DNA from: Gammaproteobacteria bacterium
GTDB lineage: Bacteria > Pseudomonadota > Gammaproteobacteria > JAJDOJ01
Length of the DNA: 52,934 bases
Assembly: GCA_022340215.1 (NCBI GenBank)
Contig: JAJDOJ010000202.1
Location: 1-52,934 of the forward strand
Direction of reading: 5' to 3'
The notes under the pieces were generated by a model. The model was not told where the DNA came from. It made no database searches and saw nothing but the letters and a program-made list of their open reading frames with translations. Position 1 is the stretch's first letter, and each line of letters starts with the position of its first letter. Below are positions 1-37,861 of the stretch, in pieces. Made by a program: the position numbers and the translations under genes.

Positions 1-786
1 GATCGCTCGAAGAAGGTCAGGCTCTATGCCGGCGAGGACGTCGAGGGCTACTCCGAGAGCGAGGTCGAGCGCATTCGCACCGAGTCGCCGGAGGAGGGGA
101 TGACGGGGGTCAGTCCGCGTTTCGTCATCAATGCGATCTCCAACGCCATCACACGCAGCGAGGCCCGCAGCCTGACGAGCATGGAGGTGCTGCTGGCCCT
201 GAAGGACACCATCGATTCGGACGCCCGTATGGAGACGCGGCAGAAGCAGCAGTGGATCGACCTGTTGGTCGCGGCGCGCAAGGATTTCTATAACCGCTGG
301 GTCAAGGAGGACGTTCACAAGGCATTGTTCGCCTCCTTCGAGGAAGAGGCCCAGGAACTGCTCGACAAGTATCTCGACGAGGTGGAGGCCATACTCGACC
401 AGCGCGAGGTGGAGGACCCGATCACCGGGGAGACCCGACCGCCCGACGAACGGTTTCTGCGCTCGGTGGAGGAGAAGATCCGGATCTCGGATTCCGGCAA
501 GCATTCCTTCCGCCAGGAGGTCGTGCGCAAGGCGATGGTCGCGTTCAAGGCGGGCGAGAAGTTCACGCTCGACAGCCATTCGCGTTTGCACGAGGCCATC
601 GAGCAGTATCTGTTCGAGGAGCGACGCGACGTACTGCGTCTGGTCGGGTCGGCGGCGCGCCCGGACGATGAGGCGCAACAGAAGATCTCGGCCGTTCAGG
701 AACGTCTGGTGTTGGAGTACGGGTACGACGCGCACAGCGCCAGGGAGGCCCTGAACTACGTCACCACGCTTCTGTCGCAGGAGTAA
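1..786 (+). CDS. prkA: PrkA family serine protein kinase, C-terminal part (5-prime end cut by window edge)
   Basis: Frame 1 is open from base 1 to the TAA at 784-786. The translation (…EGMTGVSPRFVINAISNAITRSE…) matches the PrkA/YeaG C-terminal region. It is followed by yeaH-like and spoVR-like genes, as in the conserved prkA-yeaH-ycgB trio. Confidence 0.85.
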   Translation, partial: DRSKKVRLYAGEDVEGYSESEVERIRTESPEEGMTGVSPRFVINAISNAITRSEARSLTSMEVLLALKDTIDSDARMETRQKQQWIDLLVAARKDFYNRWVKEDVHKALFASFEEEAQELLDKYLDEVEAILDQREVEDPITGETRPPDERFLRSVEEKIRISDSGKHSFRQEVVRKAMVAFKAGEKFTLDSHSRLHEAIEQYLFEERRDVLRLVGSAARPDDEAQQKISAVQERLVLEYGYDAHSAREALNYVTTLLSQE

Positions 787-854
787 GCATGCGAGCGCCC
801 CATTCGATCGGGGCAGGCCCGGGTGGGCGCCTCGCCTGGAACTGGTAGTTCGAA

Positions 855-2051
855 ATGACCGATACCACCAACACGACTCACCGGCCTTCGAGCCGCTGGT
901 ACGACCTTTTCTCCCGAGGGGCGCGTGACTGGCTGCGTCACAACGAGAAGGTCCGCACCGCCGTACGCGAACAGTTGCCGGAGCTGATCTCCCGGGTCGA
1001 CATCGGCGGCGGTGACGGTAACCGCAGGCTCGGTGTCCCCGTGCGTTTCCTGGAACACTACCGATTCCGGCTGCTGGCGGGGGAGTCGACCGCGGGGACC
1101 GGGCAGGGCAAGGTCGGTGCGGGGGACGTACTCCGACCGGCCGACGCGGGCGGAGATGGGGATGCCGGCAAGGGGCGCGGCGGCAGCGGTGAGGGCGGGC
1201 TCGAGTTCGTCCTGGAACTCAAGGTCGACGACATCGTCGACTGGCTCTGGGAAGAGATGGAACTGCCCAATCTGAGGCCCCGGGAGGGCAACCTGGCCGA
1301 TGAGCAACTCGAGCGTGAAGGCTGGGACCGTCGGGGGGCGCGTTCGCGCCTGGATCGGAGGCGGTCCTTGAAAGAGGCGCTGAAGCGCAGGGCGGTGCAG
1401 CCCCGGGGGGCGCCCTTTTCCAATGAGGACCTGCGCTTCCGTCAGCTCACGCGACGCCGTCGCCCGGTGACGCGGGCCGTCGTGTTCTTCGCCCTGGACG
1501 TGTCCTCCAGCATGTCGGAGCGGGATCGCCGGCTCGCCAAGACCTTCTTTTTCTGGGTGACTCAGGGTCTGCGCAGGCAGTACGCCCAGGTCGAGGTGGT
1601 GTTCGTGGCCCACACCGTGCAAGCCTGGGAATTCAGCGAGGCGGAGTTCTTCCAGGTCCGTGGTTCGGGCGGCACCGTGGCATCGACCGCGTTTCGCAAG
1701 GTGCTCGACATCGTGACCGAGCGCTACGATCCATCACGCTACAACGTCTATCTGTTCTACGCCTCGGACGGAGAGAATTTCGCCCATGATCGCGGCCCCG
1801 CCGCTGGCGCGCTCGAGGCGCTGGCGGCCGTGGCAAGCTTCATGGGGTACGTCGAGACGATGGCCGGCGGCCGCGCCATGCAGACAGAAACGGCGAACCT
1901 GTTTCGTGCCCTGGCGTCACGAGGGGCGAGCGCTGCGTCCTACCCGCTCTCGGCGGACCGGGATATCTGGAACGCCATCCGGAAATTCTTCCGCCGCGAG
2001 AGCGAATCGGCCGAAGCCGAGATCGGGGTGAATCAGGGAATGCGCCGGTGA
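855..2051 (+). CDS. yeaH: YeaH/YhbH family protein (DUF444, vWA-like)
   Basis: 398-aa ORF with an ATG start. It has a Gly/Asp-rich linker and a vWA-like block (VVFFALDVSSSM). It lies between prkA and spoVR, and its stop overlaps the next start (GTGATG at 2048-2053). Confidence 0.85.
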   Translation: MTDTTNTTHRPSSRWYDLFSRGARDWLRHNEKVRTAVREQLPELISRVDIGGGDGNRRLGVPVRFLEHYRFRLLAGESTAGTGQGKVGAGDVLRPADAGGDGDAGKGRGGSGEGGLEFVLELKVDDIVDWLWEEMELPNLRPREGNLADEQLEREGWDRRGARSRLDRRRSLKEALKRRAVQPRGAPFSNEDLRFRQLTRRRRPVTRAVVFFALDVSSSMSERDRRLAKTFFFWVTQGLRRQYAQVEVVFVAHTVQAWEFSEAEFFQVRGSGGTVASTAFRKVLDIVTERYDPSRYNVYLFYASDGENFAHDRGPAAGALEALAAVASFMGYVETMAGGRAMQTETANLFRALASRGASAASYPLSADRDIWNAIRKFFRRESESAEAEIGVNQGMRR

Positions 2052-3424
2052 TGGAGAGGACGCTCGAACATTACCTGCCGAAGATCGAGGCCCTCGCTCG
2101 CGAGAGTGGTCTGGTGTATTTCCCGGTCGACTACGAGCAGGTCCCGGACAGCTTCATGATGGAGGTGGCGGTCTACGGCCTGCCGGTGAGGATGCCGCAC
2201 TGGTCGTTCGGTGTGCGGTATATCTACCAGTTCGTGCAGCACCGCATGGGGCATTCCCGCCTGTTCGAGGTCGTGTTTCCCGGAGATCCGGGCCGCGCCT
2301 ATCTGTCCCGCAACAACAGCGTGGCTGAGAACGTGCTGGTTGCCGCGCATGTACTGGGTCATGCGGATTTCTCTCGCAACAACCTGCTCTTCGAGGCGGC
2401 ACAGCGATCCGTCGGGTACCACATCGTAGAGCAGGCGGCCGTCCATGCCCGCGAGATCTCCCGGGCGATCGAGCGCCACGGCATCGATCGGGTCGAAGCG
2501 GTGCTGGATGCGGCACTGTCACTGGAGCAGTACATCGCGGTGGATCGCGATCTGACACGGCAGCCCTATCCGGAATACGTCGAGGAGAAGACGGAACCGG
2601 CCTCCTCGCCTTTCCGGTCTCGATACGATCGCCTGCCGGGCGGCGGGAGATCCCGGGGTGGTGTTGCCGAGCCGAAGCGTTCACCGATCCCGCCGCATCC
2701 GGAACACGATCTGCTCTGGTTCGTGGCCAACTACGCCCCGGAGATGGAGCCCTGGGAGAGGGATGTCTTCCTCGCCGTGAGGGAGGAGTCGTTCTATTTC
2801 TATCCCGTTTTCGCGTGCCAGATCATGAACGAGGGCTGGGCCAGCTACTGGCACGCGCGTCTGTTGCGCGAGGCGGATTTCCTGCCCCAGCAGATGTATC
2901 TGGAGGCGGTGAAGGCGCATTCTGACGTGGTCAGGCCGTACGCGGCCGGTCAGGAGGTCTCGCTGAAGATCAATCCCTATCACCTGGGATTCTTTATCTG
3001 GGAGGATATCGTCGAGAGCGGCGGCTTGGAGGCGGCGCGCAAGGTGATGCGCGAGAACGACGACTTCGGTTTCATTCGTAACCACCTGGAAGAGTCGCTC
3101 GCACGGAAACTCGATCTGTTCACCTGGGAGGCGAGGCGCAGCGGAGAGGTCAGGGCAAAGGCGTTCGATATCGACGCGATACGGGAGTTCGTCCTGTCGG
3201 GGAAGTTCAATTTTGGCGCACCCAGGGTACATGTCGCCGAAATGCGAGCGGACGGGACGCTCGTATTGGTGCACGAGCACGCGACCGACGGCCGCGGGCT
3301 GGACCGGCAGAGCGCCGAGAAGGTCATGGACTATCTGCTCCGGGTCTGGCGCCGGACGGTGGAACTGCGTACGGTGGACGCGAAGGGCGGTCCGTCAAGG
3401 ATCGTCAGGCAGCCTAAGGGTTAA
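2051..3424 (+). CDS. ycgB: SpoVR family protein (YcgB-like)
   Basis: 457/458-aa ORF (ATG 2051 or GTG 2048) translationally coupled to yeaH. Its length and sequence (…NEGWASYWHARLL…) are typical of SpoVR/YcgB. Confidence 0.85.
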   Translation: MERTLEHYLPKIEALARESGLVYFPVDYEQVPDSFMMEVAVYGLPVRMPHWSFGVRYIYQFVQHRMGHSRLFEVVFPGDPGRAYLSRNNSVAENVLVAAHVLGHADFSRNNLLFEAAQRSVGYHIVEQAAVHAREISRAIERHGIDRVEAVLDAALSLEQYIAVDRDLTRQPYPEYVEEKTEPASSPFRSRYDRLPGGGRSRGGVAEPKRSPIPPHPEHDLLWFVANYAPEMEPWERDVFLAVREESFYFYPVFACQIMNEGWASYWHARLLREADFLPQQMYLEAVKAHSDVVRPYAAGQEVSLKINPYHLGFFIWEDIVESGGLEAARKVMRENDDFGFIRNHLEESLARKLDLFTWEARRSGEVRAKAFDIDAIREFVLSGKFNFGAPRVHVAEMRADGTLVLVHEHATDGRGLDRQSAEKVMDYLLRVWRRTVELRTVDAKGGPSRIVRQPKG

Positions 3425-5841: not shown

Positions 5842-5925
5842 TCCCGCGTGTCCTCCCGGGCGTTCGGAACGCACGGCCGTCGCGGGCGGCGACGAGGCCC
5901 GACGTATCCGGTTTCTGAAGACGCC

Positions 5926-6570
5926 ATGAAATCCCTGATCCGGTTCTTCGCCGACAGGCTCACGCTCTCCAACGTACTGACCTTCCTCATCGTCTTTCTC
6001 GGTCTGAGTTCCCTCAGCGTCATCCAGCGCGACAATTTCCCGAGTGTGGACTTCCTCGAGATGACGGTGACCACGCGCTATCCCGGCGCGTCTCCCGAAG
6101 ATGTGGAGCTCAACGTGACCAACAGGATCGAGGAGGAGCTGAAGGAGGTCGACGGACTGGACAAGTACACCTCGTTTTCCATGGAGAACATCTCCATCGT
6201 TCACATCTGGATCGACCGCGACGCCGAGGAGCGATACCGGATTCCGGTACGCGACGTCGTCGCTGCCATCCGCAACCGCAACATCCGGGCCACGGGTGGT
6301 TCCTTCGAGTCCTACACCAGCGAGAAGAACATCGTCACGCTGTCGGAATTCAGCGACCCAATGGATGCCGGGGAGGCGATCGTCAAGCTCACTGAGGGCG
6401 GGGCCACGGTCAGGGTGCAGGACCTCGCCGCCGTGAGGGATGGGTTCGAGCCGGCGAAGATCCTGTCGCGGATGAACGGAAAGCCGGCCATTTCGTTTCT
6501 GGTTTTCAAGAAGGAGTCCGCTGACGGCGCTATCGCGAGGAGGGCATGCCGCCGATCGATGCCGCGGTAG
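5926..6570 (+). pseudogene. RND efflux permease (AcrB/CzcA superfamily), N-terminal fragment with internal deletion
   Basis: It starts MKSLIRFFADRLTLSNVLTFLIVFLG (TM1), followed by a periplasmic porter segment. The sequence jumps from …SIVHIWI directly to DRDAEERYRIPVRDVVAAIRNRNI, a motif that normally lies about 100 aa further on. The frame is lost near 6540. Confidence 0.75.
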
Positions 6571-7607
6571 AGGGTACCTGGTCGGTGTTCCAGCCCGTGC
6601 TGACCACGATCCTGACAACGGTCCTGGCCTTCATGCCGATGTTCTTCATGTCCGGGACCTTGGGGGACTTTGTCTACGTCATTCCGCTGGTCGTGGTGCT
6701 CGCACTCACCATCTCGTGGTTCGACGTCACGTTCCTGATGCCCGCGCACCTGATCGCCGGCGCCGGTCAGATAGTCGGGGTGACCGAAGGGAGACGCGAG
6801 CACTGGTTCGAGGGAATCCGGGAGACATACCGGGGGTTTCTAAACGCTGTCCTCAGAATGCGCTATCTCGTGGTGGCGATCTTCGTCGCGCTGCTCGTGA
6901 TCGCGTTCTGGTATGCCGGGCGATACATGGATTTCGTTCTGTTTCCCACGCAGTCCGCCGACGAATTCTATATGCTCGTCGAACTGCCCAGTGGTTCATC
7001 GCTGGAACACACCAAGGAGAAACTGGCGGAGGTCGAGGCGCTCGTGCAGGCGCTGCCCGCCGGGGAACTGGACTCCATGGCGAGCCTGTTCGTTGCGTTC
7101 GTCGCCGCCGCGGTCGGCATCTACCTGATCCTGCTGTTGTTGTTCGACTCGATGGTCCAGCCGCTATTGGTCATGTTCGCCATTCCTTTCGGTCTGGTGG
7201 GCGTCATCTTCGCCTTCGCCGTGCATGTTCAGCCGCTGGGCTTCCTGGCCATGCTCGGCGTGGTCGGGTTGACCGGGATCGTTGTGAACGATTCCCTGAT
7301 TTTGGTGAATCTGCTCAACCGGTTGCGGCGCCAGCACCCGGAGAACTCGCTGCCGTCCCAGATCGTCGAGGCGGCGTCGAGCCGTCTACGCCCGATACTC
7401 CTGACCTCGTTCACGACCGTCGCGGGCTTGCTGCCGATGGCATACGGGCTGGGCGGGTCGGATCCGTTCTCCGCCCCCATGGCGTTGGCGATGGGGTACG
7501 GCATCCTGTTTGCCACACCACTGACGCTGCTGCTACCCTGCCCGCTGGTCCTGCAGGACGACCTGAGTGAGCGCATCGTCCGGCAGTGGGCTGCACTGCG
7601 CTGGTGA
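6546..7607 (+). pseudogene. RND efflux permease, C-terminal fragments (internally deleted)
   Basis: 353-aa ORF containing TM5/6-like (…TTILTTVLAFMPMFFMSGTLG…) and TM10-12-like (…IPFGLVGVIFAF…LLTSFTTVAGLLPMAYG…) segments. The second periplasmic loop is largely missing. The two fragments total about 570 aa, against roughly 1,030 aa for intact pumps. Confidence 0.75.
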
Positions 7608-12657: not shown

Positions 12658-13593
12658 ATGGCCGACCGACGATTGCAGGTCTTCTACACGGTAGCCCGCC
12701 TGTTGAGCTTCACCAAGGCGGCGGAGACGCTGCACATGACCCAGCCGGCGGTTACCTTTCAGGTAAGGCAGCTCGAGGATCACTTCAATACACGTCTGTT
12801 CGACCGCACCCACAATCGCGTTTCGCTGACCGAGGCCGGTCGACAGGCTTGCGAGTACGCGGAGAAGATCTTCGAGCTCTACGGGGAAATGGAGAGTGCG
12901 GTGAAGGAACTTACCGGGGACGTCAGCGGGGCGCTGACCCTGGGGGCGAGCACCACCATTGCCGAGTACATGCTGCCCGCACTCTTGAGGGACTTCAAGG
13001 AACAGTATCCGAAACTCAATCTCATCCTCAAGGTGTCCAATTCAGATGGCATCGTCTCCATGGTCGAGAACAGCATGATCGATCTCGGCGTCGTGGAGTC
13101 GCCGGTCACGAACAAGAATCTCCTGGTCGATGTCTGCCGCGTCGACCATCTCGTCGTGGTCGTCAAGCCCGGGCATCCATTGAGCGAGCACCAGTCGCTG
13201 ACCATGGCGGAATTGCTGAAGTATCCGTTCATCTGCAGGGAGGAGGGGTCCGGCACACGGGACGTCATCATGGAGTACCTGGAACAGTCCGGCGTAAAAC
13301 GCAACGAACTCATGGTCTGTATGGAACTGGGAAGTCCCGAATCCATCAAGGGAGCGGTCGAGGCGGGAATGGGAATCTCGATCCTGTCACGCGCGACCCT
13401 CGCCAAGGAACTCGCACTCGGGTCGCTGATGGCCCTGGATCTGGATCCGCCGCTCGAACGGGAGTTCTCGTTCGTACGCCAGAGGCAGAAGTTCAGGCAT
13501 CAGGCCATGGAAGCGCTGCTGAATCACGCGCGCCAGTACTGTCAGCGCGATACGGACGCCGAAACACCGGAACGGTCTGTCTCCCGGGGATAG
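12658..13593 (+). CDS. LysR family transcriptional regulator
   Basis: N-terminal wHTH (FTKAAETLHMTQPAVTFQVRQLE) plus a LysR substrate-binding domain; 311 aa. An extended -10 element, TGATATAAT, lies about 35 nt upstream. Confidence 0.9.
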   Translation: MADRRLQVFYTVARLLSFTKAAETLHMTQPAVTFQVRQLEDHFNTRLFDRTHNRVSLTEAGRQACEYAEKIFELYGEMESAVKELTGDVSGALTLGASTTIAEYMLPALLRDFKEQYPKLNLILKVSNSDGIVSMVENSMIDLGVVESPVTNKNLLVDVCRVDHLVVVVKPGHPLSEHQSLTMAELLKYPFICREEGSGTRDVIMEYLEQSGVKRNELMVCMELGSPESIKGAVEAGMGISILSRATLAKELALGSLMALDLDPPLEREFSFVRQRQKFRHQAMEALLNHARQYCQRDTDAETPERSVSRG

Positions 13594-24808: not shown

Positions 24809-24837
24809 TTGACAACAAACCAGCCGTGGCTTACAGT
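24809..24837 (+). promoter_or_regulatory. Sigma70-type promoter of the rubrerythrin operon
   Basis: TTGACA (24809-24814), a 17-nt spacer, then TACAGT (24832-24837), about 75 nt upstream of the ATG at 24913. Confidence 0.5.
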
Positions 24838-24845
24838 TCCACTCA

Positions 24846-24866
24846 GATTTAGAATTAGTCTAAATC
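24846..24866. promoter_or_regulatory. 21-bp palindromic operator, Fur-family (PerR-like) box candidate
   Basis: The sequence is GATTTAGAATTAGTCTAAATC. It has 8-bp perfect outer arms plus one inner pair, giving 10-1-10 symmetry with one mismatch. It starts 9 nt after the -10 hexamer. The central 7-1-7 (TTAGAAT-T-AGTCTAA) matches 11 of 14 positions of TTATAAT-N-ATTATAA. Confidence 0.5.
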
Positions 24867-24912
24867 ATGTCGCTGGTAATATTTTCATTCCATCCTTTGG
24901 AGGTAACTGACA

Positions 24913-25332
24913 ATGTCACTGAAAGGCTCAAAGACCGAGCAGTCACTCAAGGACGCATTCGCTGGTGAGTCACAGGCAAACCGCCGCTATCTGTATTTCG
25001 CATCCAAGGCCGATGTCGAAGGCTACAACGACGTCGCGGCCGTGTTCCGTTCCACCGCCGAAGGCGAGACCGGACACGCTCACGGCCATCTGGAATATCT
25101 CGAGGAGTGCGGCGACCCCGCCACTGGACTGCCCTTCGGCCCGACCGACGAGAACCTGAAGACGGCGATTGCCGGTGAAACGCACGAGTACACCGACATG
25201 TATCCCGGCATGGCCAAGGGCGCGCGTGAAGAAGGTTTCGACGAGATCGCCGACTGGTTCGAAACCTTGGCGAAAGCCGAGCGTTCTCACGCCAACCGAT
25301 TCCAGAAGGCTCTGAATTCTCTCGGCGACTGA
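24913..25332 (+). CDS. Rubrerythrin family protein without rubredoxin domain (erythrin type)
   Basis: 139 aa; …[13 protein letters not shown]…, EGETGHA…, …GETHEY… and …AERSHANRF are the four-helix diiron E/ExxH motifs. There is no C-terminal CxxC pair. GGAGG lies 9 nt upstream of the ATG. Confidence 0.85.
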
Positions 25333-25461
25333 AGCCGGACGAGAAGAAGTACGGGGCCGACGATCCGGTCCCGTCTTCCCTTATGCATACCGGCGCAGAT
25401 TCCCACCATCGTCCCGAGGCGGTAGGCCAGCGTACACCCGATCCAGGAGAGCGTTAAGAAA

Positions 25462-26808
25462 ATGGCGACAGCTACCGAAGGCCAGCGCGAAGGCAGCCTG
25501 GAGGCGCCCACGCGGCACCCGCTGGGTTGGCGCGGCCCGGAGTTCTACGACGAGGAATCGCTGTTCTCGGAACTGGAACGTGTCTACGACATCTGCCACG
25601 GATGTCGGCGGTGCGTCAGTCTGTGTAATTCGTTCCCCACACTGTTCGATCTCGTCGATGAATCGGACACCATGGAGGTCGACGGGGTCGACAAGAAGGA
25701 CTACTGGCAGGTGGTGGATCACTGTTATCTCTGCGATCTCTGTTACCTGACCAAGTGCCCCTACGTACCGCCTCACAAGTGGAACGTCGACTTCCCACAC
25801 CTCATGCTTCGGGCCAAGGCGGTCAAGTACAGGCAGGGAAAGGTCAAGCGCCGCGACAGAATCCTGACCTCAACGGACACCGTCGGTCGGCTCGCCGGTA
25901 TTCCGGTCGTGGTCCAGGCGGTCAACGCCGCGAATCACAACGGTGCAGCGCGTAAGCTGCTGCAGAAGACGCTTGGTATTCATGCCGATGCCGTTCTGCC
26001 CGAGTATCATTCGAAGACCGCCAGAAAGCGCCTTTCCGGCGTGCGCAGTCCAGTCACGAGCCCGGAGCCAGCCGGCAGGACGCGGGGACGTGTCGCCCTT
26101 TTCGCGACCTGCTATGGAGACCGGAACGAACCGCAGGTCGTCGAAGACCTTGCCAGTGTGTTTACGCACAACGGGATCGAGGTGACGCTGGCGAAAAAGG
26201 AACAGTGTTGCGGCATGCCGAAGCTGGAACTGGGAGACCTCGAGGCGGTCGAGGCTGCAAAGGACGCCAACATCCCGGTACTGACAGGCATGATCGACGA
26301 AGGCTGGGACATCGTCGCGCCGGTCCCGTCCTGTGTATTGATGTTCAAGCAGGAGCTCCCGCTGATGTTCCCCGACGACGAGGAGGTCGCCAGGGTTCGC
26401 GACCACATCTTCGATCCGTTCGAATACCTGATGATCCGTCACGCCGAAGGCAAGCTGAATACCGACTTCAAGAACCCGCTGGGCAAGGTCGCTTATCACG
26501 CTGCTTGCCATCTTCGAGTCCAGAAGATCGGTTTGAAGACTCGGGACCTGTTCAACCTCGTACCCGGAACCGAACTCGATGTGATCGAACGCTGTTCGGG
26601 GCACGACGGGACCTATGCCGTCAAGCAGGAGTATCACGAGATATCGATGAGAATCTGCCGTCCGGTGGTCACTCGTGTGAAGAAGGCCGAGGCCGACCAC
26701 TACGCCAGCGACTGCCCGATGGCCGGGCATCAGATCGAGAACGGTCTGAAGGATGACAGTGCGCCCGAACATCCCCTGACGCTGCTGCGACAGGCCTACG
26801 GGATCTGA
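25462..26808 (+). CDS. (Fe-S)-binding oxidoreductase, heterodisulfide reductase-related (2x[4Fe-4S] plus CCG domains; GlpC/HdrD-like)
   Basis: 448 aa with two ferredoxin-type motifs, CHGCRRCVSLC and CYLCDLCYLTKCP. It has a CCG motif (EQCCGMP) and a second Cys-rich repeat (ERCSGHDG). Confidence 0.85.
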   Translation: MATATEGQREGSLEAPTRHPLGWRGPEFYDEESLFSELERVYDICHGCRRCVSLCNSFPTLFDLVDESDTMEVDGVDKKDYWQVVDHCYLCDLCYLTKCPYVPPHKWNVDFPHLMLRAKAVKYRQGKVKRRDRILTSTDTVGRLAGIPVVVQAVNAANHNGAARKLLQKTLGIHADAVLPEYHSKTARKRLSGVRSPVTSPEPAGRTRGRVALFATCYGDRNEPQVVEDLASVFTHNGIEVTLAKKEQCCGMPKLELGDLEAVEAAKDANIPVLTGMIDEGWDIVAPVPSCVLMFKQELPLMFPDDEEVARVRDHIFDPFEYLMIRHAEGKLNTDFKNPLGKVAYHAACHLRVQKIGLKTRDLFNLVPGTELDVIERCSGHDGTYAVKQEYHEISMRICRPVVTRVKKAEADHYASDCPMAGHQIENGLKDDSAPEHPLTLLRQAYGI

Positions 26809-26835
26809 ACTAATTCTTTTAAGGAGCGAAAAAGG

Positions 26836-27141
26836 ATGTCGAACGAAGGCTATCACGAACCGATTGGCGAACTCTCTGACGAAACGCGCGACATGCATCG
26901 TGCGATCGTCTCGTTGATGGAAGAACTGGAGGCTGTGGACTGGTACAACCAAAGGGTCGACGCCTGTCGGGACGAGGAACTGCGGGCCATCCTCGCTCAC
27001 AATCGTGACGAGGAGAAGGAGCATGCTTCGATGGTACTGGAATGGATCAGGAGGCGCGATCCGACCATGGATAAAGAGCTGAAGGACTACCTGTTCACCG
27101 AGGCTCCCATCGCGTCGCTGGAGCACGGGCACAAGGAGTGA
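26836..27141 (+). CDS. Encapsulated-ferritin-like (EncFtn family) protein lacking a cargo-loading tail
   Basis: 101 aa. HRAIVSLMEELEAVDWYNQRVDACRDEELRAILAHNRDEEKEHASMVLEWIRRRD matches the EncFtn core as I recall it from the Rhodospirillum rubrum protein, including the Glu/ExxH metal ligands. The C-terminus (…TEAPIASLEHGHKE) has no Gly/Ser-Leu-rich targeting peptide. AAGGAG lies upstream. Confidence 0.75.
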   Translation: MSNEGYHEPIGELSDETRDMHRAIVSLMEELEAVDWYNQRVDACRDEELRAILAHNRDEEKEHASMVLEWIRRRDPTMDKELKDYLFTEAPIASLEHGHKE

Positions 27142-27146
27142 TTCTG

Positions 27147-27731
27147 ATGGACAAGTTGAAGCGGGGGGACCTCTACTCCCTCGAGAAGTATGCCGAGATC
27201 CGGCCCGAATTCCGCAAGCAGGTCATGGCGCACAAGAAAACCCGGCTTGTGCACATTGGCCCCAACGTCACGATCCATTTCGAGGACCGGTTGGTGATGC
27301 AGTACCAGATCCAGGAGATGCTGCGTGCCGAGCGCATCTACGAGGGTGAGGCCATCCTGGAAGAGTTGGACGCGTACAATCCGTTGATTCCCGACGGATC
27401 CAACTGGAAGGCGACACTGATGATCGAGTTTGAGGACGAGCATGAGCGGCAGCGCCAACTCGCCTTGCTCAAGGGACTCGAGGCCGCTACCTGGGTCCGC
27501 GTCGGCACCCTGGACAGGGTCCATCCGATCGCCAACGAGGACCTGGAACGCGAAACCGAGGAGAAGACCTCCTCGGTTCATTTCCTGCGTTTCGAGCTGA
27601 CCCCGGAGATGGTGGCCGCGGCACAGGACGGAGCGCCGATAGGGGTCGGTGTCGATCACCCGCGATACCGCTACGAGCTAGACGCGGTGCCCGAGGCGGT
27701 TCGGGACTCGCTGGTCAATGATCTAAGCTGA
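27147..27731 (+). CDS. DUF3501 family protein
   Basis: 194 aa. The ATG is preceded by AAGGAG with an 8-nt spacer and starts 5 nt after the EncFtn-like stop. The sequence (…VHIGPNVTIHFEDRLVMQYQIQEMLRAERI…) and its position next to rubrerythrin and a CCG Fe-S protein fit my recollection of this family. Confidence 0.7.
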   Translation: MDKLKRGDLYSLEKYAEIRPEFRKQVMAHKKTRLVHIGPNVTIHFEDRLVMQYQIQEMLRAERIYEGEAILEELDAYNPLIPDGSNWKATLMIEFEDEHERQRQLALLKGLEAATWVRVGTLDRVHPIANEDLERETEEKTSSVHFLRFELTPEMVAAAQDGAPIGVGVDHPRYRYELDAVPEAVRDSLVNDLS

Positions 27732-27747
27732 TCCGCCGGATCAATCG

Positions 27748-29730
27748 TCAGGATTCCCCGACGGGTTGTTCCGAGCCCGCCAGCCGTTCCTCGAGCAACG
27801 TCGAGAGGCTCGCGATCGACGGATGATCGAAAAGGTCGGTCACGTCGACGGTCTCGGGAAAGGCTACGTCGATGCCTTCGTGGATACGGGCCAGTTCTAG
27901 AGAACTCGTGCCGATATCGAACAGGTTGTCCTCGATTGCCACCTCGCGTCCTTCCAGGACCTCGTCACAGATCGCCTTGAGCTGGGCCTCAATACCCGAC
28001 AGGTCCTGCTCGTATCCTGCCCTGGGCACGAGTGAGAGCGCCTCCAGTCTGGCCAGGACCTCGTCGAAATCCCCATTTCGATAGGCGTCGATCAGAAGGT
28101 GTCGCTGTATCTTGCCGCTGGTGGTCTTCGGGATTCGGATCACGGGGATGATGTGCAGCGTCTCGAGGCCCGTGTGCGTACTGAGTGCGGCATGAATGTC
28201 GCGGGCGACACCGGTGATTTCCTCCACCTTGCCCTTGTGCAGCAGGAAGACGAGCAACTCATCGCTGTCGGCCCCGTCCGCGCGCCACGCAGCCGTCACG
28301 ATCCTGCCCAGCTCGATTCCGGTGTCACGTTCAACGATGGCTTCGAGGTCGTGAGGATAGTAGTTCTGGCCGTTGGCGAAGATGATTTCCTTGGATCTTC
28401 CGGTAACGACCAGGCCGCAATCCGCCGTGAATCCAAGGTCGCCGGTATCGAGCCACCCGTCCGGGGTGAATGCGGTCTGGTTTGCCTCGTCGTTGCGGAA
28501 ATAGCCCGTCGTTACATTCGCTCCTCGAATCTGGATATGCCCGACACGGCGTTCGGGCAGGGGTTCGTTGGAGGCGCCCGAGATGCGTATCTCGCAGCCC
28601 GCAACCGGTCTCCCCGTGCAGACCAGCGACAACGTCCCCGGACCGTCCATGGTGCCGATTCGCACACCGTTCACGTCCTGCAGGCTGTCGCGTTCGACAC
28701 GGACGGTCGTGATACCGGTTTCCGCTTCCGGAAAGGTGACCGCGAGGCTTGCCTCCGCGAGGCCGTAGACGGGAAACATGCAGGATCGTTTAAGGCCGTA
28801 TGCTGCAAGCGCCTCCAGGAATTCCTCGCACAGGTCGACGGAGATGGGCTCGGCGCCATTGACGATCAGGCGAATGCGCTGCAGGTCGAGAGTTTCCGGG
28901 GGATGCCTCCTGAGCGCCCTGAGCAGATGCTTGAGTCCGAAGTTGGGCGAGCAGGTCACGCTGACCCCCAGCTCGGAGGACTTTTCCAGCCACAGCAGGG
29001 GGTGCCGGACAAAGAGGTCGGTGGGCATCAGGCAGTGGTCGACTCCGGCGGCGAGAGGCGTGAGGTGAAACCCGATCAGTCCCATGTCGTGCGTCAGCGG
29101 CATCCAGCTAAGCGCGCTGTCCCCGGCGCGCACGCGGGCCCCGGCGGCAATCGCGCGGATATTGGCGAGAATGTTACCGTGACTCAGTACGACTCCCTTG
29201 GGTTCACTCGTCGACCCCGACGAAAACTGGATGAAGGCGGTGTCCGCAGCGTCTGCACGATAGACGCGCCCCGGTTCACCGGACAGGTCCACGGCAGCCG
29301 GATCGACCACGCGTCGGTTCCACGCTTCCGGAAGCTTCTCCGCGCCTGCCTCGTTTGCCAGGGACTCAAGTCGTTTCACGGTCCCGGCGTCGGTGAATAG
29401 CCACGGGTCGGTCAGCGACCGGTAGATGCGAATCAGTTTAAACCGGTGTTCGTCACTGATCCCGGGTGCGACGGGCACGGGGACGACCCCGCCGAGGATG
29501 CCGGCCCAGAATGCGTAGAGGAACTGCTCGTTGTCGTTGACATGTATAATCAGCTCGCTGCCTGGCTTCAGCCCGCGATCCTGCAGGGCGTTCAGCATCG
29601 CGCGCGCCCGACCGAACAGCGTGTCGAACGGGATTTCGCGTGTCTCCGCCGCGCCCGCCAGTAGCGTGATCCGGCCTCTCTCTTCGGCCTTCTTCGTCAG
29701 TGCCTGTGTCAGCGTGCTGAAGTCTGTCAT
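27748..29730 (-). CDS. Fatty acyl-AMP ligase (adenylation domain) fused to a C-terminal acyl/peptidyl carrier domain
   Basis: 660 aa with adenylation cores FSSGSTSEPKGVVLSH, WLDTGDLGF, GRSKEIIFANGQNYYPHDLE (FAAL-type) and PKTTSGKIQR. The C-terminal carrier motif is DNLFDIGTSSLEL. Confidence 0.85.
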   Translation of the reverse strand: MTDFSTLTQALTKKAEERGRITLLAGAAETREIPFDTLFGRARAMLNALQDRGLKPGSELIIHVNDNEQFLYAFWAGILGGVVPVPVAPGISDEHRFKLIRIYRSLTDPWLFTDAGTVKRLESLANEAGAEKLPEAWNRRVVDPAAVDLSGEPGRVYRADAADTAFIQFSSGSTSEPKGVVLSHGNILANIRAIAAGARVRAGDSALSWMPLTHDMGLIGFHLTPLAAGVDHCLMPTDLFVRHPLLWLEKSSELGVSVTCSPNFGLKHLLRALRRHPPETLDLQRIRLIVNGAEPISVDLCEEFLEALAAYGLKRSCMFPVYGLAEASLAVTFPEAETGITTVRVERDSLQDVNGVRIGTMDGPGTLSLVCTGRPVAGCEIRISGASNEPLPERRVGHIQIRGANVTTGYFRNDEANQTAFTPDGWLDTGDLGFTADCGLVVTGRSKEIIFANGQNYYPHDLEAIVERDTGIELGRIVTAAWRADGADSDELLVFLLHKGKVEEITGVARDIHAALSTHTGLETLHIIPVIRIPKTTSGKIQRHLLIDAYRNGDFDEVLARLEALSLVPRAGYEQDLSGIEAQLKAICDEVLEGREVAIEDNLFDIGTSSLELARIHEGIDVAFPETVDVTDLFDHPSIASLSTLLEERLAGSEQPVGES

Positions 29731-34467: not shown

Positions 34468-35163
34468 ATGTACCGACTGCTGCGCCTGTTTCGTACCTCG
34501 ATCGGCAGCAAACTGATGATGGCGATCAGCGGCCTCGTACTGGTCGGGTTCGTGACCGGCCACATGATCGGCAACCTGAAGGTCTTCCAGGGGCAGGAGG
34601 CGATCAACGACTACGCCGCCTGGCTTCAGGGACATCCCCTGGTGTGGGGGATTCGTCTGGCGATTCTCACGGTGTTCGCCTTGCATGTCTACACGGGTAT
34701 AAGGCTTCATCGCGAGAACCGTGCAGCGAGGCCACGTCGTTATGCGACACGGGTTCCCGTTGAGACCGGTTTCGCCGCCCGTCACATGCTCCTCAGCGGG
34801 CTGATCGTCCTGGCCTTCGTCATCTACCACCTGCTGCACCTCACGATCGGTGTCGTTCAGCCGCAATACGCCGGACTGCTCGACGGGGCCGGCCGGCCGG
34901 ACATCTATTCCCGTCTCGTACTCGGACTGTCGAATCCCTGGCTGGCGGCGATCTACGCCACCGCCGTGTCGCTGGTCGGACTGCATCTGTGGCATGCCGT
35001 GCGCAGCATGTTGTATACGCTCGGATTCGGACACAATGCCTGGCGGCGCGCGACCGACATCGGTACCGGCGTATTCAGCGCCTTGGTGGTTTCCGGGTTC
35101 CTGTCCATGCCACTGGCGGCGCAACTCGGTTGGCTGGACATACCTGTAGTGCCAGTGCGATGA
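34468..35163 (+). CDS. sdhC: Succinate dehydrogenase/fumarate reductase cytochrome b subunit, b558 (single-subunit dihaem) family
   Basis: 231 aa from the ATG at 34468, with five TM helices. Four candidate haem-ligand His residues are present (TGHMIGN, ALHVYTG, YHLLHLT, GLHLWHA). The stop overlaps the sdhA start (ATGA). Confidence 0.8.
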
Positions 35164-37079
35164 GTCCGTCCCTTGATGCAGGGATACCGGATGGTGCACT
35201 GAAGGACAAGTGGAGCCATCGCCAGGATGAACTCAAGCTGGTGAGCCCGGCAAACCGGCGAAAATACCGGATACTTGTGGTGGGGACGGGGCTCGCGGGG
35301 GCGTCGGCGGCAGCCACGTTGGCCGAACTCGGCTATGAGGTGGAATGCTTCACCTTCCACGACAGTCCCAGGCGTGCGCACTCGGTCGCCGCGCAGGGCG
35401 GTATCAATGCCGCCAAGAACTACCAGAATGACGGGGACAGCGTCTACCGCTTATTTCATGACACGGTCAAGGGAGGCGATTTTCGTGCGCGGGAGGCGAA
35501 CGTCTACCGGCTGGCCGAGGTCAGCAACCGCATCATCGATCATTGTGTGGCGCAGGGGATCCCCTTCGCACGCGAGTACGGCGGGCTGCTGGACAACCGC
35601 TCCTTCGGTGGTGCACAGGTCTCGAGGACATTCTACGCGCGCGGGCAGACCGGGCAGCAATTGCTTCTAGGCGCCTACGGGGCGCTGAACCGACAGATCC
35701 ATGCCGGCCGGGTCCGTGTCCACAACCGCTGCGAGATGCTCGATCTGGTCCTGCTGGAAGGTCATGCCCGGGGTATCGTGACCCGGGATCTGGTGACCGG
35801 TGCCATCGGTCGTCATTCCGGTCAGGCGGTGGTGCTCGCGACCGGCGGGTACAGCAACGTATACTTCCTGTCCACCAATGCACTGGGCTGCAACGTAACC
35901 GCCACCTACCGCGCCTACCGGAGCGGCGCACTGTTCGCGAACCCGTGCTTTACCCAGATTCATCCTACCTGCATCCCGGCCTGCGGCTCGAACCAGTCCA
36001 AGTTGACGTTGATGTCGGAATCCCTGCGAAACGATGGCCGCATCTGGGTGCCGCTGCATCCCGGGGAGACGAGGGCACCCAACGAGATACCCGAAGCCGA
36101 GCGCGACCACTATCTGGAGCGCCGGTATCCAGCCTACGGCAACCTGACACCTCGAGATTTCGCGTCCCGGGCAGCGAAGCAGGTCTGCGACGAAGGACGC
36201 GGTGTCGGACCGACGGGACGCGGGGTCTACCTGGATTTCTCCGAGGCCCTGGGTCGTCTGGGACGGGCCGCGATCGAACAGCGTTATGGCAACCTGTTCA
36301 GCATGTACGAACGCATCACCGGGGAAGATCCCTACCGGGTCCCGATGCGGATCTATCCGGCAGCGCACTACACCATGGGTGGCCTCTGGGTAGACTATGA
36401 CCTGATGAGCAACATCCCGGGTCTGTTCGTTATCGGGGAGGCCAATTTCTCGGACCACGGCGCCAACCGGCTGGGAGCGAGCGCCTTGATGCAGGGGCTG
36501 GCCGACGGATATTTCATCCTGCCGCAGACCCTGGGTCACTATCTGGCCGTCGAGAGGCCGGGGTTGCCGGACCCCGCCTGCGAACCCTTTCGCCGGGTCG
36601 AGGCGGACGCCGTCGGGCGTACCCGGGCCCTGCTCGACATCGGTGGGAATCGACCCGTCGACAGCTTCCACAGGGAATTGGGCGAGATCATGGAGTCCCG
36701 CTGCGGTATGGCTCGGAACGAACAGGGATTGCGCGAGGCGCTGTGCTTGATACCCGATCTACGTGAGGCATTCTGGCGTGAGGCCTGCGTCTGCGGGAAC
36801 GGGGAAGAACTCAATGTATCGCTGGAACGCGCCGGACGGGTGGCCGATTTTCTGGAGTTCGCCGAACTGCTCTGTCAAGACGCCCTGGCGCGGGACGAGT
36901 CCTGTGGCGCGCACTTCCGCGAGGAACATCGGACCGCTGAAGGCGAGGCGGTTCGGAACGACGATCGATTTTCTCATGTGGCCGCATGGGAATATCGCGG
37001 GGCGGACACCGATCCGGTGTGCCACTGTGAGCCCCTTTCTTTCGAGACGGTGCATGCGGTGACCCGGAGCTACAAATGA
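35160..37079 (+). CDS. sdhA: Succinate dehydrogenase/fumarate reductase flavoprotein subunit
   Basis: 639 aa. FAD fold [17 protein letters not shown], the covalent-FAD region [11 protein letters not shown] and HYTMGG are present. Confidence 0.92.
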
Positions 37080-37861
37080 GACTCAGGCTGCGGGTGTGGC
37101 GGCAGCGATCGTCCGAAGGTGCCGGTCGACTGGTCAATTACGAGGTGGAGGGGGTCGAGGGCGGCATGTCGTTTCTTGAGATGCTCGATCTGTTGAATCT
37201 GGACCTGGCGACCAAGCGCGAGGCGCCGGTGGCCTTCGATCACGACTGTCGGGAGGGTATCTGCGGAGCCTGTTCCCTGGTCATCAACGGGGTCCCGCAC
37301 GGACCCCGTACGGCGACCACGGCGTGCCAGCTCTACATGCGGCATTTTCGCGATGGCCAGGAAATTGTCGTCGAACCCTGGCGCGCCGCCGCTTTCCCGA
37401 TCATCCGGGACCTGATCGTCGATCGGGGGGCCCTGGACAGGGTGTTGCAGGCAGGGGGATACGTCTCGGTCAACGCTGGATCGGCCCCCGACGCGAATAC
37501 CCTGCCTGTTGCGCACCAGCTTGCGGAGCGTGCGTTCCTGGCCGCGTCGTGTATTGGTTGCGGCGCCTGTGTCGCCGCCTGTCCGAATGCCTCGGCAATG
37601 CTCTTCGTGGCGGCCAAGCTCGGGCAGTTGAACGCGTTGCCCCAGGGGCAGCCCGAGCGGACGCACCGCGCCATCGCGATGGTCGAGGCCATGGACGCCG
37701 AGGGATTTGGAAACTGCGGGAATCACTACGAATGCGTCGCCGTCTGTCCGAAATCCATCCCACGGGACTTTATCGCCAGGCTGAACCGCGAATTCTTCCG
37801 CGCGGCGATGATTGCGCATGAGTTTGCTTCTCCTCCTCCAAGCGGGGAGTTGGAGGAATAG
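37076..37861 (+). CDS. sdhB: Succinate dehydrogenase/fumarate reductase iron-sulfur subunit
   Basis: 261 aa with the Cys clusters [21 protein letters not shown] and [12 protein letters not shown]. The start overlaps the sdhA stop (ATGA). Confidence 0.9.

Follow-up and report, generated by a model that had tools for sequence, protein, structure and literature searches.

We analysed a 52,934-nucleotide (nt) stretch of gammaproteobacterial DNA (contig JAJDOJ010000202.1 of assembly GCA_022340215.1), the whole of which is referred to as the window. The window carries a cluster of four genes encoding a one-domain rubrerythrin (rbr), a soluble CCG/Fe-S oxidoreductase (RFO, encoded by rfo), a small ferritin-like protein related to encapsulated ferritins (EncFtn) and a protein of the DUF3501 family. 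The four genes may form one operon that is controlled by an Irr-type regulator and responds to iron and peroxide. According to this reading, to which we assign a probability of roughly 55%, the rubrerythrin would be a peroxidase fed by RFO, DUF3501 would serve as an adaptor, and the EncFtn-like protein would oxidise Fe2+ without a shell. The identity, order and conservation of the genes, the presence of an operator and the adjacency of a regulator gene in relatives were directly observed.

The three-gene core of the cluster is the already described aerobic-type rubrerythrin system, which was named in 2016. Cardenas, Quatrini and Holmes defined an “aerobic-type” lineage of rubrerythrins devoid of a rubredoxin domain, which co-localise and co-occur with DUF3501 and with a COG0247 Fe-S oxidoreductase, named RFO (PMC5114695). 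Among 4,461 complete genomes, 185 contain the rubrerythrin/RFO/DUF3501 triple, which was described as a co-occurring and co-evolving module, and DUF3501-RFO fusions are known from Nitrosomonas (PMC5114695). The authors proposed that RFO stands in for the missing rubredoxin as the electron input (PMC5114695). Gray et al. (2020) reported mitochondrial targeting of the system in protists including Andalucia, and stated that its function needs further work (PMC7050145).

All three families are encoded in the window in their most frequent order (rbr, rfo and DUF3501), with a one-domain rubrerythrin and a GlpC-related RFO that has a CCG domain. In contrast to the published system, an EncFtn-like gene is interposed between rfo and DUF3501, and control of the type exerted by Irr through the iron control element (ICE) is absent from the published description. 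The 2016 text has no matches for “encapsul”, and a figure legend gives only an unnamed “HYP” (PMC5114695). Within a limited literature check, both the four-gene form and Irr/ICE-type control in gamma- and beta-proteobacteria are undescribed. The first-pass annotation, an earlier note on this DNA made from the sequence alone, was right in recalling that rubrerythrin, a CCG Fe-S protein and DUF3501 recur together with no assigned mechanism. It also presented the cluster as a candidate for an uncharacterised system. That claim does not hold, as the core has been named and, for three of the four proteins, structures of close relatives are found in the PDB (rubrerythrin: 4DI0, 8FUH and 9ONM; EncFtn-like protein: 3K6C; DUF3501: 3FJV).

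The distribution of the cluster was surveyed in one genome per species, using an alignment of 11 DUF3501 sequences as query. The aerobic-type rubrerythrin system is widespread, with at least 596 species-level genome matches. The best 80 of these, which cover only relatives of at least 54% identity, were analysed as loci. All are proteobacterial, and the trio is 54–98% identical between them and the window. The rbr, rfo and DUF3501 genes occur in the same order in 70 of the 80 loci, an arrangement far from chance, and seven of the other ten loci are cut by contig ends. The three proteins differ in conservation, as identities range from 81 to 98% for the rubrerythrin, from 56 to 89% for RFO and from 54 to 85% for DUF3501. 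In Thioalkalivibrio sulfidiphilus, the same four genes are found in the same dxs-ispA-xseB ... radA context.

The organization of the cluster is reported in Table 1. Re-reading of the sequence confirmed four open reading frames (ORFs) on the + strand, separated by 129, 27 and 5 nt, as annotated at first. Profile searches bore out all four family assignments, including those of the third and fourth proteins, which hidden Markov models place in EncFtn (PF22277 and TIGR04535) and in DUF3501 (PF12007). All four proteins look soluble by sequence analysis. Good Shine-Dalgarno sites had also been noticed, and three were located: GGAGG (24899–24903) upstream of rbr, and AAGGAG upstream of both the EncFtn-like (26821–26826) and the DUF3501 (27133–27138) genes, 8–9 nt 5' of their ATG codons. 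The last of these falls in the terminal codons of the EncFtn-like gene, and the signals predict that translation of the EncFtn-like gene is coupled to that of DUF3501. The DUF3501 start is the ATG used by gene callers; an alternative GTG is found at 27138. The DUF3501 gene lies 1.8 kb downstream of rbr on the same strand. The operon is flanked by the divergent dxs-ispA-xseB genes on one side and by a convergent AMP-ligase/carrier-protein gene on the other.

Table 1 Genes and predicted signals of the four-gene cluster. Positions refer to the window.
Feature	Position	Strand	Details
rbr, one-domain (“aerobic-type”) rubrerythrin, 139 aa	24913–25332	+	PF02915, E 4.6e-30
RFO, soluble CCG/Fe-S oxidoreductase, 448 aa	25462–26808	+	PF02754 CCG, E 6e-15
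Shell-less EncFtn-like predicted ferroxidase, NE0167/3K6C type, 101 aa	26836–27141	+	PF22277, E 2e-44
DUF3501 protein, 194 aa	27147–27731	+	PF12007, E 1e-69
Sigma-70-type promoter (predicted)	24809–24837	+	-35 TTGACA 24809–24814, 17-nt spacer, -10 TACAGT 24832–24837
ICE-like palindromic operator (predicted) GATTTAGAATTAGTCTAAATC	24846–24866	strand-less	core TTAGAATTAGTCTAA at 24849–24863
GC-rich hairpin (predicted) ACGGGGCCG-acgatc-CGGTCCCGT	25351–25374	+	intergenic folding

An ICE-like palindromic operator, which is not mentioned in the first-pass annotation, lies just downstream of the -10 box. In Bradyrhizobium, Irr binds ICE, the consensus of which is TTTRGAAYNRTTCYAAA (Rodionov et al. 2006, PMC1698941). 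The operator, TTTAGAATTAGTCTAAA (24848–24864), fits this published alpha-proteobacterial consensus at 16 of 17 positions, and has a 7-3-7 layout (TTTAGAA-N3-TTCTAAA). Its core is the sole site in the 52.9-kb window that scores at least 10/12 against TTAGAnTnAnTCTAA. In 33 of 68 loci, the 200 nt preceding rbr contain a match of at least 11/12, which is perfect in 18 of them. Of 1,277 random 200-nt background windows drawn from these loci, 0.2% score 10/12 and none attains 11/12. L001, L006, L011 and L012 are among the loci with an ICE-like palindrome upstream of rbr. Four relatives carry a second copy of the box between the -35 and -10 boxes.

Regulators that might recognise the operator are encoded next to the trio in some relatives. 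Irr-like genes of the Fur family flank the trio in four loci (L036, L049, L068 and L076), in one case divergently from rbr. The NCBIfam IrrA/Irr models are the top matches of the encoded proteins (E 1e-33 to 2e-40), followed by Leptospira PerRA. They have no CxxC zinc site and feature an HHH/HxH motif. Thousands of such Irr-like proteins were retrieved by profile search, several of which are labelled Gammaproteobacteria. Two independent look-ups of Irr-like proteins (L168 and L170) both led to genes located beside DUF3501, RFO and rubrerythrin. Both the operator and the flanking regulators resemble alpha-proteobacterial Irr/ICE. Rodionov et al. (2006) found neither Irr nor ICE outside alpha-proteobacteria, and described rubrerythrin-like genes as the “minimal Irr regulon” in some alpha-proteobacteria (PMC1698941). 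A LysR-type gene of the window (12658–13593) was considered as a candidate OxyR and rejected, as it fits a selenium-metabolism LysR model.

The predicted promoter matches the consensus at 10 of 12 positions. A promoter scan is weak on its own, since it returned two sites versus 1.0 expected. The -35 TTGACA is kept in nine of ten aligned orthologous upstream regions, in which a -10-like TAnAGT is found in the same register, and is conserved in the clade to which the window belongs. No promoter-like site was detected by consensus scan on the + strand inside the operon. In the first-pass annotation, the promoter, the gaps and the Shine-Dalgarno sites were taken as consistent with a single transcription unit. 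The hairpin located after rbr begins 19 nt past the rbr stop codon, has a predicted stability of about -16.5 kcal/mol and lacks a T-run. Strong hairpins, similar or more stable, are found within approximately 30 nt of the rbr stop codon in most related loci, and are accompanied by T-runs in some (L001, L017, L028 and L074). The 146-nt rbr-rfo spacer as a whole is not unusually stable (z = -0.6). Since hairpins at this place are common across loci, a single uniform transcript is not assured. The post-rbr hairpin is a possible attenuator or mRNA-stabilising element. In the simplest transcript model, a single promoter would be combined with partial termination or stabilisation after rbr, which would explain why rbr is by far the most conserved gene of the operon and, presumably, the most expressed.

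At the other end of the cluster, only 16 nt separate the stop codon of DUF3501 from that of the convergent AMP-ligase/carrier-protein gene (27729–27750). This spacer contains a small palindrome, GATCCGCCGGATC, and no obvious terminator.

The rubrerythrin matches the PF02915 profile only and, as previously annotated, has no rubredoxin domain. Predicted di-iron ligands are E19, E52xxH55, E89, E92 and E123xxH126, which include two ExxH motifs. The closest solved structures (9ONM, 4DI0 and 8FUH; E ~3e-74) are near-identical to the window protein in length and sequence, and sulerythrin (1J30) is also close (E 1e-51).

RFO features two ferredoxin-type motifs, C45xxCxxCxxxC55 and C88xxCxxCxxxxC99, followed by two CCG-type domains. 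Only the first domain (C217...C249-C250-G...C291) has a canonical CCG motif; the second (C349...C378-S-G...C418) has a degenerate CSG motif. This refines the earlier description of two [4Fe-4S] motifs plus CCG domains. Fifteen of the 16 cysteines of the protein, including all those of the CCG domains, are invariant in 72 orthologues. No transmembrane helix is predicted in RFO (maximum KD19 = 1.21), and no solved homologue was detectable by sequence. An N-terminal pair of ferredoxin-type cysteine motifs followed by two CCG-type domains is also found in GlpC, HdrD and DsrK. Unlike these proteins, RFO has a CSG in the second domain and no terminal CxxC in either domain. GlpC is the best named model (E 2.6e-70), but scores are below the equivalog cut-offs (237.4 versus 278 and 157.6 versus 279.9 bits). 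Moreover, the 44 window ORFs scanned include neither a GlpA/GlpB partner nor an HdrE or DsrMJOP partner. The HdrD/GlpC chemistry initially attributed to RFO is therefore reduced to a resemblance, given the GlpC score, the degenerate second CCG and the missing GlpA/GlpB.

A further region of the window (34989–37861) encodes a succinate dehydrogenase/fumarate reductase-like flavoprotein of 696 aa, with approximately 94 extra N-terminal residues, paired with an SdhB-like Fe-S subunit. A membrane-anchor gene is not evident beside the pair. Some enzymes of the succinate dehydrogenase/fumarate reductase type use CCG-domain anchor subunits.

The DUF3501 protein has a solved homologue in Burkholderia pseudomallei, PDB 3FJV (E 4e-51), which is labelled an “uncharacterized novel protein”. 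The AlphaFold (AF2) model, which has a mean predicted local distance difference test score (pLDDT) of 89.4, shows an alpha/beta fold. In a Foldseek search of the PDB, 3FJV was the sole structure retrieved with the model (template modelling score, TM, 0.91), all further hits being at or below TM 0.3. As modelled, DUF3501 is an orphan fold. The family consists of about 2,500 clusters at 50% identity. Residues conserved family-wide (Y15, R19, R33, E46, Y53, Q54, E57, E62, H171 and D192) are mostly charged or aromatic. The window protein has no cysteines, which rules out that DUF3501 is a DsrC-like thiol/disulfide substrate of the CCG protein. Domain fusions were also uninformative. Of ten longer members scanned, nine match DUF3501 alone, and the remaining one (P0312) shows a marginal CNP1-like match over ~35 residues; the extra length probably results from miscalled or frameshifted ORFs.

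The nearest structure to the EncFtn-like protein is NE0167 of Nitrosomonas europaea (PDB 3K6C, 95 aa, E 1e-46), a structural-genomics protein with ten chains in the PDB entry. Both proteins represent a short, peptide-less form, and the window protein differs in having six additional His-rich residues at the COOH end. EncFtn proteins of R. rubrum and Haliangium are the next structural relatives (E ~1e-35) and are 30–40 residues longer. R. rubrum EncFtn (Rru_A0973, PDB 5DA5), a Family 1 encapsulin cargo, belongs to the same Pfam family and shares the two-helix ferritin-like domain and the ferroxidase residues. E30, E60 and H63 of the window protein align to E32, E62 and H65 of this ferroxidase, and neighbouring W/Y residues are conserved.

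The EncFtn-like protein ends 8 residues past the ferritin domain (...PIASLEHGHKE) with the His-rich tail SLEHGHKE (27118–27141). Nothing similar to the targeting peptide of Family 1 (consensus SDGSLGIGSLKRS, PMC8346489) is found in the window protein or in the 98 relatives examined, all of which are 95–101 aa long. The scan of 44 window ORFs revealed no encapsulin shell protein, and no shell gene is present in the annotated loci of relatives. Similarly, stand-alone EncFtn-like loci from metagenomes have no recurrent neighbour and nothing shell-like. EncFtn oxidises Fe2+ and cannot mineralise or store iron without an encapsulin shell (PMC5012862; PMC8346489); no peroxidase activity was seen (PMC5012862). 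The iron sequestration originally proposed is thus doubtful, since EncFtn cannot store iron without a shell and neither a targeting peptide nor a shell gene is present in the window. Fe2+ oxidation without storage would be a better reading of the EncFtn-like protein. In contrast to Family 1 EncFtn/Flp cargo, which have a C-terminal targeting peptide and an adjacent shell gene, the window protein is expected to be a free decamer that would oxidise iron and not store it.

The favoured reading can be broken down into successive biochemical steps, all of which we infer. An Irr-type repressor of the Fur family would bind the ICE-like palindrome that closely follows the -10 box. Judging from alpha-proteobacterial Irr, the repressor would keep the operon off under iron or haem shortage, and release it under iron-replete conditions or in the presence of peroxide. 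The post-rbr hairpin would probably ensure an excess of rubrerythrin over the three downstream proteins. By analogy with its family, the rubrerythrin would reduce H2O2 to water at the di-iron site. Given the missing rubredoxin domain, soluble RFO would deliver the electrons, through its two [4Fe-4S]-type motifs and CCG domains, from a donor such as a quinol or a thiol. The idea that RFO supplies electrons is a hypothesis of Cardenas et al. (PMC5114695). DUF3501 may connect rubrerythrin to RFO as a non-redox adaptor or assembly factor, a role suggested by its strict co-occurrence with rubrerythrin and by the reported DUF3501-RFO fusions. Finally, the EncFtn-like protein, as a free decamer, would oxidise the Fe2+ that is freed or available under peroxide stress, limiting Fenton chemistry without storing iron; this ferroxidase activity is suggested by that of R. 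rubrum EncFtn.

Several observations weigh against the favoured reading. On the regulatory side, the hosts are gamma- and beta-proteobacteria, unlike those of the known Irr/ICE pairs, and the flanking Irr-like proteins score 112–138 bits, below the NCBIfam Irr cut-offs of 150 and 170 bits. A PerR-like peroxide sensor would fit these regulators nearly as well as Irr. No Fur-family, irr-like or OxyR gene is present in the 52.9-kb window, so that we infer the regulator for this organism. The ICE-like box is missing from about half of the loci. Some of the box-less loci (L029, L061, L080, L014 and L074) carry ATAG-N7-CTAT upstream of rbr, which we take to be an OxyR-like half-site pattern. These differences suggest that the same trio is controlled by different oxidative-stress regulators in different lineages. 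The hairpin that would set stoichiometry in the window lacks a T-run. With regard to electron supply, DUF3501 is found with rubrerythrin in the absence of RFO in L069, and also in Thermoproteales (PMC5114695), and therefore RFO cannot be the sole electron route. With regard to the fourth gene, the EncFtn-like gene is missing from 85% of the related clusters (68/80) and its nearest relatives are mostly stand-alone. No ICE box was found upstream of stand-alone EncFtn-like genes, so that nothing points to a common regulon. The link of the EncFtn-like gene to the trio may be one of co-regulation alone.

The EncFtn-like gene is a facultative addition to the trio. It is present in 12 of the 80 related genome loci, always adjoining DUF3501. 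It is located between rfo and DUF3501 in 11 loci and after DUF3501 in one, a Thiomargarita metagenome-assembled genome (MAG). In a neighbour-joining tree of RFO and DUF3501, calculated with no support values, loci bearing the gene are scattered over at least four separate positions. The clade of the window, which is Thioalkalivibrio-like, has seven members, all of which have the EncFtn-like gene. The 80 closest metagenomic relatives of the protein, which are 80–95% identical to it, were also analysed. Of these relatives, 5 are in-cluster (three before DUF3501 and two after), 42 are stand-alone, with 600 nt or more of sequence on either side, and 33 are uninformative. The window gene is operon-embedded, in contrast to the 95-aa form, which is mostly stand-alone in the loci examined. 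The neighbourhood tallies support the recurrence of the trio stated in the first-pass annotation, and indicate that the EncFtn-like gene is not an integral part of it.

In the Thiomargarita MAG (L051, 6001–6950), DUF3501 is followed by the EncFtn-like gene, and neither rubrerythrin nor RFO is found within 6 kb. This is the only locus seen in which the DUF3501/EncFtn-like pair is alone. The pair is flanked by ORFs of 259 and 260 aa, which were read by eye as grpE-like and HAD-hydrolase-like.

The length of the C-terminal tail varies among EncFtn-like proteins. Stand-alone copies are nearly all exactly 95 aa long and end in PIAH-x, and members of the clade of the window have 5–6 extra residues (LEHGHKE, LEHEHKG and GHHDH). 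Short His-rich tails (LEHGHKE, GHHDH and GQHHE) occur on cluster-embedded EncFtn-like proteins of several lineages (L001, L006, L008, L011, L012, L059, L062, L088, L102 and L151).

The main competing explanation is that the EncFtn-like gene is a passenger, i.e., an independent small ferroxidase gene that landed or was kept in the cluster because it is useful under the same iron and peroxide conditions, with no physical or mechanistic link to the trio. We consider this explanation possible, and clearly less probable than the favoured one. The prevalence of stand-alone copies among informative close relatives, the unrelated contexts in which they lie, the lack of a recurrent neighbour and the absence of the gene from most related clusters are all in line with a passenger. 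For instance, three look-ups with Pfam-annotated neighbours, in Marinobacterium and in two MAGs, revealed stand-alone genes in unrelated contexts. Moreover, some in-cluster copies (67–71% identical to the window protein) are no closer to it than stand-alone ones (87–88%). In contrast, a passenger would not be expected to adjoin DUF3501 in every linked case, either before or after it and including the Thiomargarita pair, nor to be linked in at least four separate lineages. The predicted translational coupling to DUF3501 in the window, and the His-rich tail found on cluster copies of the window clade and not on 95-aa stand-alone copies, also argue against it.

Two other explanations are less likely than a passenger gene. 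In the first, which we regard as unlikely, the module handles the redox state of iron and is not a peroxidase: the rubrerythrin and the EncFtn-like protein would both be ferroxidases, electrons from RFO and DUF3501 would re-reduce or mobilise iron, and Irr would control the genes along with iron-storage genes. Two ferritin-superfamily proteins are indeed encoded within one operon. The operator matches Irr/ICE, and the alpha-proteobacterial Irr regulon mostly includes iron storage and iron-using proteins (PMC1698941). In addition, ferroxidase activity of D. vulgaris rubrerythrin is, by its title, the topic of a paper cited in PMC5012862. However, one-domain rubrerythrins have no storage cavity, EncFtn cannot mineralise iron, and OxyR-like sites replace the ICE box in some loci. 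In the second, that the EncFtn-like protein is a true encapsulin cargo whose shell is encoded elsewhere, so that the operon couples peroxide removal to iron storage, the protein passes the TIGR04535 “encapsulin-associated ferritin-like protein” model (138.6 bits versus a cut-off of 125), a name that NCBI also gives to the T. sulfidiphilus orthologue, but the match covers only positions 1–93 of 114 and misses the targeting end, and the dissimilar tail, the shorter length, the missing shell genes and the lack of a recurrent neighbour at stand-alone loci lead us to discard it as most improbable.

The favoured reading may extend further. Irr/ICE control may reach beyond alpha-proteobacteria, with the aerobic-type rubrerythrin operon as the main, perhaps ancestral, target of an Irr-like Fur-family repressor devoid of cysteines in many gamma- and beta-proteobacteria, and a shell-less EncFtn-type ferroxidase may be the direct working partner of DUF3501. 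For instance, DUF3501 may accept or chaperone the iron that the decamer oxidises, or may assist in the metallation of rubrerythrin. This extension is tentative, and we consider it rather doubtful. If true, the partnership with EncFtn would provide the first function for DUF3501. The four-gene variant offers a natural candidate partner for this protein, as the free EncFtn-type ferroxidase always adjoins DUF3501. The ICE-like box and the Irr-like protein would make up a defined operator/regulator pair, from which the conditions of expression of the system may be predicted. The “encapsulated ferritin” family also appears to have a large shell-independent branch.

Two additional regions of the window were noted. 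Two adjacent ORFs (5848–7607) match only positions 2–96 and 859–1012 of the 1021-position AcrB/RND model. They are preceded by an ORF that has matches to HlyD-family membrane-fusion proteins and stops inside the matched domains. The region has the appearance of an efflux operon that is degraded or internally deleted. At the edge of the window (100–3424), which cuts the first gene, genes encoding a PrkA C-terminal domain, DUF444 and a SpoVR-like protein are found in a row, and presumably constitute a stress module of the yeaG-yeaH-ycgB type.

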